Positions 10,463 through 20,942 of a stretch of DNA of 26,369 nucleotides are shown one piece after another. A program made the position numbers and the translations under genes. Under the pieces are notes generated by a model. The model had not been told where the DNA came from, ran no database searches, and saw only the letters and a program-made list of their open reading frames with translations. How positions within the stretch are numbered: position 1 is the stretch's first letter; each line of letters starts with the position of its first letter. Origin of the DNA: a virus (Duplodnaviria; Heunggongvirae; Uroviricota; Caudoviricetes); the IMG/VR virus record IMGVR_UViG_2660238444_000003, positions 1-26,369 of that record. One strand, given 5' to 3'.

Positions 10463-10621
10463 TTATTCGCATCGCATGACAACATCAAATTTTTCGAGAT
10501 TACTTTGTCGCAACAATCCTTCTTCTACGCGGTCAGCTTTTCTATAATTATCAAATTCGAAATGTTTAATTACTTCTTTCGTTTCTCGCTCTATAACTTC
10601 AACAATGTATTTCTTATTCAT
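10463..10621 (-). CDS. Hypothetical small protein (52 aa), translationally coupled
   Basis: ATG overlaps the TGA of the upstream gene; MNKKYIVEVIERETKEVIKHFEFDNYRKADRVEEGLLRQSNLEKFDVVMRCE; below the ORF-track cut-off, found by hand translation. Confidence 0.35.
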   Translation of the reverse strand: MNKKYIVEVIERETKEVIKHFEFDNYRKADRVEEGLLRQSNLEKFDVVMRCE

Positions 10622-10917
10622 CATTCTTCCCCAAGAGCTTTTCTGATTGCTGCAAGACCTTTATTAACAGCTCCATACCATTCTGGATATGTTGTCTTTG
10701 TTCTATTTTTGGTTTGCTTAAGTAATAACTGAAGTGCTTCGAGAAGGTCAGGTGCTGCCGCTATTAGATTGGCATCTTCAATGCATTGAACTTCCTCACA
10801 GATTGCAATATACGAACGCCAGCCTGCGCCATTTTCAAGTGAGTCTGCCTGGATGATTTTAATCTCACCGCCATCCATCATTATTTCCCACTTACCTTTA
10901 GTACCTTTGAATTCCAT
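10621..10917 (-). CDS. Hypothetical protein
   Basis: Internal ATG (MEFKGTKGKWEIMMDGGEIK...) of ORF 10621..10983, preceded by GAGGTGAAT. Confidence 0.5.
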   Translation of the reverse strand: MEFKGTKGKWEIMMDGGEIKIIQADSLENGAGWRSYIAICEEVQCIEDANLIAAAPDLLEALQLLLKQTKNRTKTTYPEWYGAVNKGLAAIRKALGEE

Positions 10918-10972
10918 ATTCACCTCTATGCTTGCTGCCAAAACAATGAACCATCCGGAAATTCCAGATAGT

Positions 10973-11197
10973 TCATAATTCACTCTTCAATACTTCCAAC
11001 TTACTAATCGCCGATAGATATCCGCGCTGATAGGGCATCATCATTCCTTCGAGCTTGCCACTTCTTAACTCCTCCCTGAGCAATTGTATTGCTTGATCAA
11101 TAACCTCTGCCTTAGCGTCCTTTATGGCTTGCTTGCGGGGCTTTGCTTTCTGCTTTGGCAGATTTCTCAAGCATGATGGAATGTATGTCTGATTCAT
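10973..11197 (-). CDS. Hypothetical protein
   Basis: 74 aa, ATG one codon after the GTG of ORF 10973..11200; GAGGT 5 nt upstream; immediately follows N. Confidence 0.5.
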   Translation of the reverse strand: MNQTYIPSCLRNLPKQKAKPRKQAIKDAKAEVIDQAIQLLREELRSGKLEGMMMPYQRGYLSAISKLEVLKSEL

Positions 11198-11200
11198 CAC

Positions 11201-11473
11201 TTACCTCGCCGTCAGTTGTTTTGATTTCCGGTAGCCTGCCGCGTAAATAGCTACGTTTGGCAGGCAAATACTTCCACTGCATTCATCTGCCTTCTTGCAG
11301 CGAAGGCTTCCGAGTGATGCTGCTTTATCTGCTCTGACGCAACCAGAGAGCTTTAGCGCAATTTTTCGCGCCAGTCGCTGCTCTTGCATTGCCTGTTCAC
11401 GTTGAGCCTGTCTGCGTGCTCTGCGGCGATTTCTGGCGTTATCGTCAGCCAGATATGTAATGACTACTGTCAT
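11201..11473 (-). CDS. N: N-like transcription antitermination protein (P22 gene 24 type)
   Basis: 90 aa from MTVVITYLADDNARNRRRARRQAQREQAMQ...; arginine-rich motif near the N-terminus as in lambda N (MDAQTRRRERRAEKQAQWKAAN); GGAGGTCAAC precedes the ATG. Confidence 0.78.
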   Translation of the reverse strand: MTVVITYLADDNARNRRRARRQAQREQAMQEQRLARKIALKLSGCVRADKAASLGSLRCKKADECSGSICLPNVAIYAAGYRKSKQLTAR

Positions 11474-11528
11474 GTTGACCTCCGATGAAACAACTTTGGA
11501 ATTGATAGTGATTGCAAAGTGGTTTCTG

Positions 11529-11547
11529 GCCCCTCGAACTGAGGGGC
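11529..11547 (-). promoter_or_regulatory. GC-rich hairpin in the N leader, about 55 nt upstream of the N start
   Basis: gcccctc / gaggggc stem with 5-nt loop; no U-run on either strand, so not a canonical intrinsic terminator; position recalls the processed hairpin in the lambda N leader. Confidence 0.35.
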
Positions 11548-12034
11548 AGAAAGAGCATCTCGCCACCTAATAGGTCAATGCTCGGATCGAGAGATTTAAT
11601 TAACCTCGGTTTTGAAGTTATGCATTCACATAAATCCTCCTGTTGCATGTGCAGCATTGGCTGTGTTTGGCGGCTGCATTTCGCCTATGGAATTGACTTT
11701 GGCGGTGACGCGCCGGGTGCTTATCTTCCGGTTGCCGTCGTGCAGCTGCACTTCACGTCACCCCAAAGCCAACTACTCTTTGACTCACACTCTCGCAGTG
11801 AGCGCGCCCATGCCATTGAGTCTCTGCCGCTTCATCGCCGCTGATAACCGGTGCGCGTCTGGCATTCGTGCTGCTTTACCGGAGCTACTTTTAATATATT
11901 GACCTTAACCCGATGCTAAGCAGGCTCGCTCAATGACGACTCAGGGCAGTATCATTACTGCTGCATTGCCTTTCGGCTGCGGTCTAACCGCGTTAGTGCA
12001 CCATTACGGCACCTCCTGTTTGGTTAAACTCAGT

Positions 12035-12075
12035 TCCCGCATTTCGGCGGGACAATCCCATCAATGTTAAAGAGC
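12035..12075 (-). promoter_or_regulatory. nutL (boxA GCTCTTTAAC plus boxB hairpin TCCCGCCGAAATGCGGGA)
   Basis: Minus-strand reading gives GCTCTTTAAC-15 nt-TCCCGCCGAAATGCGGGA; the boxB 18-mer is identical to the one after cro (nutR), and boxA matches CGCTCTT-type boxA. Confidence 0.7.
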
Positions 12076-12123
12076 CTGCCAATCTGTTCCGTTTGGCTTC
12101 CAGCGTCCTGCTGATGGCTAAAG

Positions 12124-12164
12124 AATACTGTAGGTATTTTATTGTGTAAATACCCAAGGTATTT
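12124..12164. promoter_or_regulatory. OL operator region (two palindromic repressor sites) overlapping the leftward early promoter
   Basis: aatacTGTAGgtatt (12124..12138) and aaataccCAAggtattt (12148..12164): AATAC...GTATT half-sites, same motif as at OR; located between the rex-position gene and nutL. Confidence 0.6.
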
Positions 12165-12295
12165 GTTTTTGGTGAAATAATGATAAACAAATGAATACAA
12201 AGGATATTTATTTTTTTCGGTGTCTGCTTGTTCAGTGCTTTTTATGCGGGATATGTGAAGTGGATCCCGATAGCTATTGCTGCCGGGATTATAGG

Positions 12296-12664
12296 TTAGT
12301 CAGCGAAGGTTAAGACGAGAATTACCTTAATGATGTCTGCTACAACAGACACGGCCATAGATAAACCAAAGACGATCCAAGCCACAGTGATGTCTTCACT
12401 ACCATCGTATAGAGTTCCGTAATCACTGGTGTAAGGCGTAAATGTCGCGCCTTGATACAATAGGTATAAGCTTGATCCATAGAGGATAAATGCAGATATC
12501 CCTTGTATTGCTATGATCACAAGAATCATGAAACGAGCTGATCTATGCGCCCAAGCCTGGCTTATTTTTTCTGATAGAGATTTCGCAATAAAAGCATGCG
12601 CTAAGCCGTAAATTGTCGAGATTGCCAACATCCCAAAAAAGCTTGCTATAGCGGTTCCAACCAT
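12296..12664 (-). CDS. Small multi-pass membrane protein in the rex position (candidate superinfection-exclusion / abortive-infection protein)
   Basis: 122 aa from ATG at 12664 (AAGGGG 6 nt upstream); several long hydrophobic stretches (e.g. FMILVIIAIQGISAFILYG, VAWIVFGLSMAVSVVADIIKVILVL); immediately downstream of cI on the same strand, between cI and OL. Confidence 0.6.
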   Translation of the reverse strand: MVGTAIASFFGMLAISTIYGLAHAFIAKSLSEKISQAWAHRSARFMILVIIAIQGISAFILYGSSLYLLYQGATFTPYTSDYGTLYDGSEDITVAWIVFGLSMAVSVVADIIKVILVLTFAD

Positions 12665-12681
12665 AAGCGCCCCTTGCGTGA

Positions 12682-13398
12682 TCAAACCAGCCTTAGTTTT
12701 GTCTCAATTGCAACGCCTATAATCTTGCAGTTTCCATTGATTGGCACGAGAGGCCATGCAGGATTAAGTCCCTTGAGGTATTTATTTCCGCCGTCGATTA
12801 TCAGCTTCTTGAATGTTGCTTCGTTAGAGTCAGAAAGTTTTGCTATGACCAAGCTGCCGTTGATCGCCTCCCTTCCGGTATCGAAAAGAACGAATGTTCC
12901 CTCTGGAATGCTTAACCCAACCGGTGCCGTCATTGAATCACCTTCCACTTTAAGCCAGAACGCATTACCTTGAATATGCGCGTCAGACTCAAGCCAAACA
13001 TCTATGTCTTTAATGGTGTATGGTTCGCATGCTTCACACCACGAGCCAGCCTGGATACTGCTTAACACCGGATACCTCTTTCCTGCTCTGTATTCCCCTG
13101 CATACCTTACGTTGGCATCGCTCTTAAGGCTTTCTGCCTGTTCTGCAACCTTGGCAGCAATTGACTGGCTAAAATCAGCAATTGAGACTTGCAACAGTCG
13201 TGCAAAACCAGATGCAACCTCAACGTTTAGCGCGTTTCTGCCATTAAGATAATGCCCTACCGCTCCTTGGGTGATACCCAGTTCATCAGCGATTGAGTAT
13301 TGGGTTATTCCCAATTCTTTCTTTTTTGACTCATACAAAGCCTTAAGCCGCTTAGCGTCTTCGAGCTGTTCTGTCGTCAGTGATTTTTTATTTTCCAT
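12682..13398 (-). CDS. cI: CI-type prophage repressor (HTH plus S24 autopeptidase domain)
   Basis: 238 aa; LTTEQLEDAKRLKALYESKKKELGITQ..., AG cleavage site (IQAGSW), FWLKVEGDSMTAP and FKKLI catalytic motifs; very similar in layout to lambda CI as recalled. Confidence 0.9.
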   Translation of the reverse strand: MENKKSLTTEQLEDAKRLKALYESKKKELGITQYSIADELGITQGAVGHYLNGRNALNVEVASGFARLLQVSIADFSQSIAAKVAEQAESLKSDANVRYAGEYRAGKRYPVLSSIQAGSWCEACEPYTIKDIDVWLESDAHIQGNAFWLKVEGDSMTAPVGLSIPEGTFVLFDTGREAINGSLVIAKLSDSNEATFKKLIIDGGNKYLKGLNPAWPLVPINGNCKIIGVAIETKLRLV

Positions 13399-20498: not shown

Positions 20499-20618
20499 GC
20501 CCGTGCATATCGGTCACGAACAAATCTGATTACTAAACACAGTAGCCTGGATTTGTTCTATCAGTAATCGACCTTATTCCTAATTAAATAGAGCAAATCC
20601 CCTTATTGGGGGTAAGAC

Positions 20619-20942
20619 ATGAAGATGCCAGAAAAACATGACCTGTTAGCCGCCATTCTCGCGGCAAAGGAACAAGGCATCGGGGCAATCCTTGCGTTTG
20701 CAATGGCGTACCTTCGCGGCAGATATAATGGCGGTGCGTTTACAAAAACAGTAATCGACGCAACGATGTGCGCCATTATCGCCTGGTTCATTCGTGACCT
20801 TCTCGACTTCGCCGGACTAAGTAGCAATCTCGCTTATATAACGAGCGTGTTCATCGGCTACATCGGTACTGACTCGATTGGTTCGCTTATCAAACGCTTC
20901 GCTGCTAAAAAAGCCGGAGTAGAAGATGGTGGAGATCAATAA
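20619..20942 (+). CDS. S: Holin S (dual-start S107/S105 motif)
   Basis: [58 protein letters not shown]... matches lambda S; Met1-Lys2-Met3 dual start present. Confidence 0.92.

Follow-up and report, generated by a model that had tools for sequence, protein, structure and literature searches.

The locus described here lies in a stretch of 26,369 nucleotides (nt) from a tailed phage (Caudoviricetes; IMG/VR record IMGVR_UViG_2660238444_000003, positions 1 to 26,369), which we refer to as the window. On its minus strand, the cI gene (13398..12682) is followed by a small membrane open reading frame (ORF), a pL-like promoter, the N-utilization site nutL, a long leader and the N gene (Table 1). The pL-like site coincides with the annotated pL and OL1 of HK620 in an alignment of 99% identity, the nutL region is 99% identical to the annotated nutL of HK620, and the N protein is 99% identical to HK620 N. 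The arginine-rich motif of N reads NARNRRRARRQAQRE, and a near-identical protein matches the Pfam family N_peptide (PF25694, E = 5e-15). A direct read of the minus strand from the end of boxB (12035) to the start codon of N (11473) gave an untranslated interval of 561 nt (12034..11474), as an earlier reading of this DNA from its letters alone (the sequence-only reading) had proposed. Transcription should start near 12114 and, since neither an internal promoter nor a minus-strand terminator was found inside the leader, give a predicted 5' untranslated region of ~640 nt. The 561-nt interval is the 5' leader of the pL-N message.

Table 1 Features of the pL-N leader in the window, in the order of transcription (SD, Shine-Dalgarno sequence; dG, folding free energy)
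Feature	Position	Strand	Description
pL-like promoter	12150..12122	-	TTTACA, 17-nt spacer, TATTCT; sole sigma-70-like minus-strand site
nutL	12076..12035	-	boxA-like GGCTCTTTAAC (12076..12066) and boxB; equals HK620 'nutL; putative N-utilization leftward'
boxB hairpin	12052..12035	-	tcccgccgaaatgcggga; tcccgc-cgaaat-gcggga
Module A	~12023..11780	-	~245-nt structured RNA; relative to HK620/HK140 an insertion spanning 12032..11783
5' mini-ORF of A	12016..11993	-	SD CAGGAGG (GGAGG 12016..12012), ATG GTG CAC TAA 12004..11993
Module B	11782..11692	-	long 91-nt hairpin, dG -40.2 kcal/mol, z = -4.9
Module C	11691..11489	-	~200-nt leader element adjoining N; fold z = -3.4
Start-stop of C	11641..11626	-	SD AGGAGG 11641..11636, ATG 11631..11629, TGA 11628..11626
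3' hairpin of C	11547..11529	-	gcccctc/gaggggc; predicted in consensus fold
Last stem of C	11525..11515 with 11498..11488	-	AAACCACTTTG/CAAAGTTGTTT; predicted in consensus fold; just 5' of the SD of N
N gene with SD	11483..11201	-	GGAGG 11483..11479, ATG 11473..11471, 90 codons (ORF list)

In line with the sequence-only reading, no credible ORF was found in the gap: the only sense ORFs are a GTG frame of 41 amino acids (aa) and a frame of 70 aa, and 2-nt indels disrupt both of them in the other allele. ARAGORN found neither tRNA nor tmRNA in the leader, and a scan of window positions 10500..13000 against Rfam 15 gave no covariance-model match at E up to 1 for any of the three modules described below. 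The description of the leader as GC-rich holds in relative terms (G+C 0.52-0.57 over 11600..12100, approximately its first two thirds, versus 0.37-0.46 in the flanks), but not in absolute ones. The comparison with lambda needs correction, as nutL had been placed only a few tens of nucleotides from N in that phage. With lambda boxB at 35518-35534 and the N start codon at 35360, a position which we take from an N length of 107 aa (the RefSeq coding sequence is drawn longer), the distance is ~157 nt in lambda, compared to 107 nt in HK620 and 561 nt in the window. A published account places lambda nutL ~200 bp upstream of N and describes the intervening RNA as highly structured (PMC5725501).

Similarity searches and pairwise alignments resolved the leader into three separately inherited non-coding modules, A, B and C, which lie between nutL and the ribosome-binding site of N and meet at sharp breakpoints (12033/12032, 11783/11782, 11692/11691 and 11489/11488). 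The order is nutL, B and N in HK620, and nutL, B, C and N in HK140 and CUS-3. The second N gene of mEp213 is preceded by a degenerate boxB, A and B, and the Stx2c phage EH1904 and the Hafnia phage yong1 carry nutL and A followed by a variant of B. In the window, all of these elements are present in the order nutL, A, B, C, and the SD and coding sequence of N. Its leader thereby equals the 107-nt leader of HK620 plus two optional cassettes, A and C, which agrees with the modular recombination proposed from the sequence alone. Among 5426 complete E. coli genomes, A is present in 117, full-length C in 159 and the complete window arrangement, counted where a 1101-nt query from pL to N was covered to 80% or more, in eight. 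The arrangement behind the supposedly unusual length of the gap is thus rare and not unique. An intact conserved gene, a finding that would speak against a structured RNA, was absent from the nutL-N interval of all related loci examined, and no gene is lost here. In mEp213 (JQ182733, locus L002), the early-left operon carries two annotated N genes (874-1206 and 2359-2631); the second is of the HK620 type, and its degenerate boxB (CCCTCCGAAATGCGGG) comes without a boxA.

Module B is a long hairpin which contains the palindrome gtgcagctgcac (11740..11751; the sequence-only reading had recognised it, one base off at 11739..11750) as well as the arms ggtgacg and cgtcacc (11762..11756 with 11710..11704), whose pairing had been pointed out correctly. 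In HK620, B directly follows nutL. The lambda N leader folds like B, and the two have in common a lower stem, GGCUUUGGGG...CC(N)CCAAAG, with a single bulged base. This lower stem is kept in seven further N leaders (NRG857C, Stx2c EH1904, Hafnia yong1 and four IMG/VR phages, some of which have a P22-type N); the sequences of their inner stems differ and the pairing is retained. Because the lower stem and its bulge are common to these leaders, with inner stems that differ yet pair, B is the homologue of the structured N-leader hairpin of lambda. The apical part of the N-leader hairpin ranges from ~90 to ~190 nt across the variants. Over the loci compared for this hairpin (lambda, L258 455-640 on the minus strand; yong1, L006 2740-2930; L010, L264, L290, L293, L310 and L325), the lower stem and bulge are conserved from lambda to the P22-type leaders, and the apical two thirds are highly variable in sequence and length.

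The likeness to lambda extends beyond this hairpin. Both leaders show the order pL, boxA/boxB, long hairpin, SD and N, and the window N has the arginine-rich N terminus and the N_peptide match expected of this type. nutL, B and N of the window thus form an ordinary lambda-type N leader, in contrast to modules A and C, which flank the hairpin in the window and make up a new three-module extension. In lambda, according to the part of PMC5725501 that cites Wilson et al. (1997, 2002), the N-leader hairpin is an RNase III target and modulates how N and Nus factors, bound at nutL, repress the translation of N. Extrapolated from lambda to the window phage, both RNase III cleavage of B and autoregulation by N would be expected.

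Module C occurs in HK140, CUS-3 and UTI89-type prophages; HK620 and mEp213 lack it. Its full-length copies in the E. coli genomes are 100%, 92%, 74% or 70% identical to that of the window. It ends ~16 nt before an N-like gene in the seven loci with annotation examined, and it also precedes P22-type and other N alleles. The start-stop of C, AGGAGGATTTATGTGAAT, is identical in both C alleles, which are otherwise ~70% identical, whereas the next ORF of the window copy (ATG CAT AAC ... TAA, nine codons) is not conserved, the other allele having ATA. The gcccctc/gaggggc hairpin noted in the sequence-only reading is present as described. A compensatory change converts CCCCTC/GAGGGG into CCCCGTC/GGCGGGG, and the last stem is re-paired in P22-type N leaders. 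The C alleles differ by three 2-nt indels. We rejected the notion that C is a diverged copy of A, as an unfiltered covariance-model search with A gave no match in C.

The window copy of A is matched end to end by the covariance model with 272.9 bits. Copies of A that are 77-86% identical also occur outside N leaders. Five settings were observed: from nutL to N; from Q to a holin gene, where a tR'-like, GC-rich hairpin with a T-rich tail precedes A by ~10 nt; from Q to a tRNA gene; from an Acb2/Tad1 gene to a DUF2560 gene; and from spanin or endolysin genes to the small terminase subunit gene (terS). The flanking genes, identified by Pfam, nearly always share the orientation of A. In IMG/VR, a pattern scan placed A in at least 120 loci, and nhmmer recovered full-length A in at least ~118 loci with 104 unique sequences. 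The corresponding scan of genome contigs was dominated by chance matches from GC-rich genomes, and genuine copies were confined to loci of Kluyvera, Pseudocitrobacter, Silvania, Citrobacter and Morganella. Further copies lie in records of Klebsiella, Hafnia, Providencia, Pantoea, Rahnella, Yersinia and Pectobacterium. Plasmid records are among the carriers as well (NZ_CP093490 from Klebsiella, CP036162 from Pectobacterium, NZ_CP019065 from Rahnella, CP009363 from Yersinia, and Pantoea plasmids), and seven of the A-bearing plasmid records are predicted to be conjugative.

In 6 of 132 loci (L017, L027, L030, L065, L081 and L187; in L017 this is the Q-to-lysis interval), one or two tRNA genes of the same orientation (Thr, Asn+Phe, Met+Arg or Ser) stand 7-90 nt behind A. 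With only these six cases, a general link between A and tRNA genes was rejected. The insertion site of A in HK620 and HK140 reads GGGAAC/CAAAGAG (the slash marks the junction), and TGAGT stands at both ends of the insert. TGAGT was dismissed as a target-site duplication since the empty site in HK620 and HK140 has no TGAGT. Likewise, neither a terminal inverted repeat nor a target-site duplication was visible at A that would mark a transposable element such as a miniature inverted-repeat element or an insertion-sequence remnant. The covariance model had just one other match in the window (20600..20706, 11.8 bits); as it runs into the beginning of the holin gene, it was set aside as chance.

In order to score covariation, 102 copies of A were aligned with the covariance model and evaluated on a refined structure of approximately ten helices. 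In this structure, 92.2% of cells are paired, compared to 29-41% when the partners are slid by one to three columns. Changes on both sides were seen for 27 of the 46 pairs (281 cells), and none of 500 shuffles reached the observed covariation values. Two helices that are absent from the search model are equally well supported: an extra helix CCY:RGG (P4), with 66 C-G pairs, 32 U-A pairs and not a single unpaired sequence, and a small hairpin with G-C, U-A and C-G variants. A first predicted helix, between the SD and CCY, was displaced by RGG as the better-supported partner (P4). At two positions G-U outnumbers every other pair, and there is a conserved GAAA tetraloop; both features fit an RNA fold on the sense strand. 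These analyses support the suggestion of a structured RNA made from the sequence alone, which is supported in addition by the fold of B (Table 1) and the lambda homology; the Rfam scan and the covariation analysis proposed at that stage gave no match and support for the structure of A, respectively. A is a discrete, covariation-supported structured RNA family that is not in Rfam and appears to be undescribed: Rfam on 10 loci with divergent A copies returned a single match, to a tRNA, at E up to 0.1, and literature searches on sequence fragments, boundary sequence, start-stop and Rho, and prophage structured RNA yielded no description of it.

Some copies of A (e.g. L134 628-1051) carry insertions of up to 171 nt in the P2 loop, up to 48 nt in the P3 loop and up to 25 nt in P6, entering before model positions 55, 74 and 113; these loops tolerate expansion. 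Two hairpin loops of A are near-invariant, 11866..11858 (AAUGCCAGA) and 11816..11811 (AUGGCA; family consensus AGGGCA), and they hold complementary GCC/GGC cores, extending up to AUGCC/GGCAU. This suggests a kissing-loop contact between them, for which covariation would give no signal as the loops are invariant.

The leader might also represent debris of recombination, or else a protein gene, decayed or hidden, on either strand. Several annotations point in this direction, as GenBank or PGAP list 'hypothetical proteins' over the modules: HK140_048 in the sense direction, UTI89_RS28850 and KEH54_RS08855 in antisense, and two over A in the Klebsiella phage RothC. Moreover, an antisense frame is open across all of A in 33 of the 102 copies. 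In the remaining copies, that is in most, this frame contains stops, including one at 11900..11902 in the window. The column entropy of A per codon phase (0.74, 0.71 and 0.70) reveals no 3-base periodicity, and coding potential of A was rejected on both strands. Nor can the three 2-nt indels between the C alleles, the covariation fitting RNA helices, and the conservation of the modules with sharp borders in many phages be reconciled with it. We therefore consider this explanation extremely improbable, and with it falls the idea from the sequence-only reading of a remnant left by a deleted gene: A, B and C are each conserved non-coding units, A lacks periodicity, and the indels in C are not multiples of three. 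The other two parts of that reading's interpretation, structured RNA and modular recombination, are supported. A 110-member antisense 'protein cluster' over A was discarded as homologous DNA translated in one frame rather than a gene. The frames are not conserved, and the 'hypothetical proteins' over the leader (window 11626..11751 on the minus and 11512..11844 on the plus strand; L001 2032-2157; L007 1320-1709; L008 1320-1736) are probably mis-annotated structured RNA.

A related proposal concerns boundary sequences of the HK620 type. The cI-to-N interval of CUS-3, which is annotated 'bsq5; boundary sequence', contains nutL, B and C, and the conserved stretches (nutL, B and the SD of N) form the module joints, as expected of recombination linkers. 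However, this idea addresses DNA recombination only and leaves the RNA covariation in A and B, the mini-ORFs and the late-operon copies of A unexplained.

Both A and C contain a short reading frame behind a strong SD. The sequence-only reading had drawn attention to the CAGGAGG motif and the ATG GTG CAC TAA just after nutL, which are indeed present. The stop codon of this mini-ORF lies 1 nt 5' of the first conserved hairpin of A, GCGG-UUAGA-CCGC (11991..11979), so that a ribosome positioned there would cover the hairpin. In 90 of the 104 unique A copies, an SD is followed by ATG, one to six codons and a stop, and the frame is never longer; three codons are found in 62 copies and a bare start-stop in 14. 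The codons vary freely (MVH, MKQ, MKH, MHK, MQI and others), and so does the SD-like motif (GGAGG, GAGGA, AAGGAG and others). ATG is almost invariant at the usual distance; a few copies have a TTG start after AAGGAG. This pattern suggests that the mini-ORFs of A and C load ribosomes. In one subgroup of A (L014, L051, L073 and related copies), the SD region just 5' of ATG reads GAGGATAAACCAATG. Within it, GGATAAACC resembles the 3'-terminal part of the type I-E CRISPR repeat of E. coli (...GGGGATAAACCG), a resemblance that may be due to chance.

The mini-ORFs invite comparison with the bar minigenes of lambda, which are transcribed from pL as well and consist of AUG AUA and a stop. Minigenes of 3-8 codons sequester tRNA as peptidyl-tRNA (PMC2490762). 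In a scenario of this kind, peptidyl-tRNA release or the holding of ribosomes on the mini-ORFs would dampen host translation after induction, and the structure would only stabilise the transcript. Indeed, a strong SD with a frame of one to few codons in a pL-transcribed non-coding stretch is common to both systems, and the strict length limit, tRNA sequestration by short minigenes and the pL origin of bar would all be in keeping with this scenario. Yet the window mini-ORFs have no fixed codon and are joined to a large conserved structured RNA. Freely varying codons mean that no particular tRNA is targeted, no peptidyl-tRNA would be made on the bare start-stops of module C and of 14 A copies, bar toxicity is mainly seen in Pth-deficient hosts, and 220 nt of conserved structure would be left unexplained. 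We regard a bar-type action as improbable.

Taken together, a three-module pL-N leader with ribosome-loading mini-ORFs, an RNase III split at B and A as a portable RNA is the explanation we favour, with some confidence. In this model, RNA polymerase starting at pL would transcribe nutL and then A. A ribosome would load on the A mini-ORF and terminate against the first hairpin, while the remainder of A would fold into a compact multi-helix body. RNase III would then cut the lower stem of B, by analogy with lambda, and give rise to an RNA of ~350 nt comprising nutL and A and to a separate message comprising C and N. A ribosome parked on the start-stop of C would, together with the C hairpins, protect the new 5' end and set access to the N start. 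A would thereby act as a portable RNA 'moron' on early (pL) or late (pR') antiterminated transcripts. The mosaic and its conservation were observed directly, as were the structures of A and B, the pattern of mini-ORFs and the variety of settings; cleavage of B by RNase III in the window phage is carried over from lambda, and ribosome loading, protection of the 5' end and any action of A in trans are inferred.

Several findings weigh against this model. Folded alone, A is no more stable than shuffled sequence (z = +0.2), and the alignment behind most of its covariation measurements had been fitted to the model, a concern that the support for helices outside the model answers in part. In C, covariation is scarce (5 pairs across 9 sequences), and the start-stop sequence was itself a condition for entry into the IMG/VR set for C. 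That the mini-ORF of A is so short could in part follow from the conserved TAA just before the first hairpin. Lastly, the window copy of A may be slightly decayed: relative to both the family consensus and the Stx2c phage copy, it carries two G-to-A changes (~11950/11960 and ~11869/11855) that turn G-C pairs into mismatches, breaking one pair each in P3 and P8. Such mismatches may be tolerated, or the resident prophage may have begun to decay.

The diversity of settings bears on what A does. A does not look like a regulator of any single downstream gene, since the downstream neighbour varies. This variation (N, holin, DUF2560, terS or tRNA) argues against gene-specific control in cis and would suit a trans-acting phage non-coding RNA for host takeover or anti-defence, which is produced early from pL or late from pR' and released by processing at B, the long leader being a side effect. 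The position of A directly after nutL, or after a tR'-like hairpin downstream of Q, places it among the first sequences made by antiterminated polymerase, and its many invariant unpaired positions and conserved GNRA loop suggest a specific partner. In addition, one group of copies has an anti-defence gene, Acb2/Tad1, as its neighbour. On the other hand, neither a promoter nor a terminator of its own was found for A, no gene constantly adjoins it, and it is not obvious what a trans-acting RNA would need the conserved SD and mini-ORF for. We consider a purely trans-acting RNA possible and rather unlikely.

Alternatively, A and C may be cis-only cassettes against polarity or decay, in which ribosome loading and tight folding avert Rho termination or degradation by RNases, chiefly before N protein exists, and which are otherwise near-neutral passengers. 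A strong SD and a start codon open both modules, the rest of which is base-paired, and both are restricted to transcribed gaps within operons and co-oriented with the operon. The RNA of A is also richer in G than in C (C/G = 0.75) and may thus be a poor Rho loading site, whereas the ratio in module C is 1.21. However, dozens of invariant unpaired nucleotides and approximately ten helices would not persist across genera of Enterobacterales in a neutral passenger. Moreover, C is missing from HK620 and mEp213, and A from HK620 and HK140, so that neither module is needed for N expression. A role confined to cis is accordingly also rather doubtful in our view.

Two known classes of phage elements resemble A in part. 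Like the put RNAs of HK022, A is a structured RNA of lambdoid phages that directly follows an early promoter or a late terminator. In contrast, the put RNAs are ~70 nt long, consist of two stem-loops without a mini-ORF and replace N, whereas A spans ~245 nt with approximately ten helices and the phage has nutL and N. No HK022 record was among the similarity matches for A. With phage morons, A has in common its optional presence, sharp borders, occurrence in gaps of several operons and spread over many phages; a moron, however, is usually a protein gene that brings its own promoter and terminator, whereas A encodes no protein and neither signal was found for it.

Outside the leader, a tRNA-Thr gene (CGT; 2727..2802, plus strand) and an oppositely oriented 408-aa ORF (2817..4043, minus strand) are 15 nt apart. 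This ORF sits in the position of an integrase, and the junction probably marks the attachment-site boundary of the prophage.

With regard to A itself, we tentatively propose an undescribed class of movable phage RNA of ~245 nt, with approximately ten helices and a 5' mini-ORF (start, zero to five further codons and stop), which lambdoid phages throughout Enterobacterales carry just downstream of an antitermination site, either nutL or the Q-dependent terminator. Such an RNA would have a specific partner and a role in early or late development or in anti-defence, and translation of the mini-ORF would be part of its action. The fused mini-ORF is an unusual and testable feature of A, which is a widespread structured RNA with good covariation and no Rfam family, and which occupies the first-transcribed positions of early and late operons in many enterobacterial prophages, including Stx2c-converting phages. 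The lambda N leader is the textbook case of a transcription factor that controls its own translation via RNA looping and RNase III. Its natural relatives described here, in which conserved RNA cassettes extend the N leader from ~100 to 560 nt, offer a natural test of how distance and structure act in N autoregulation.

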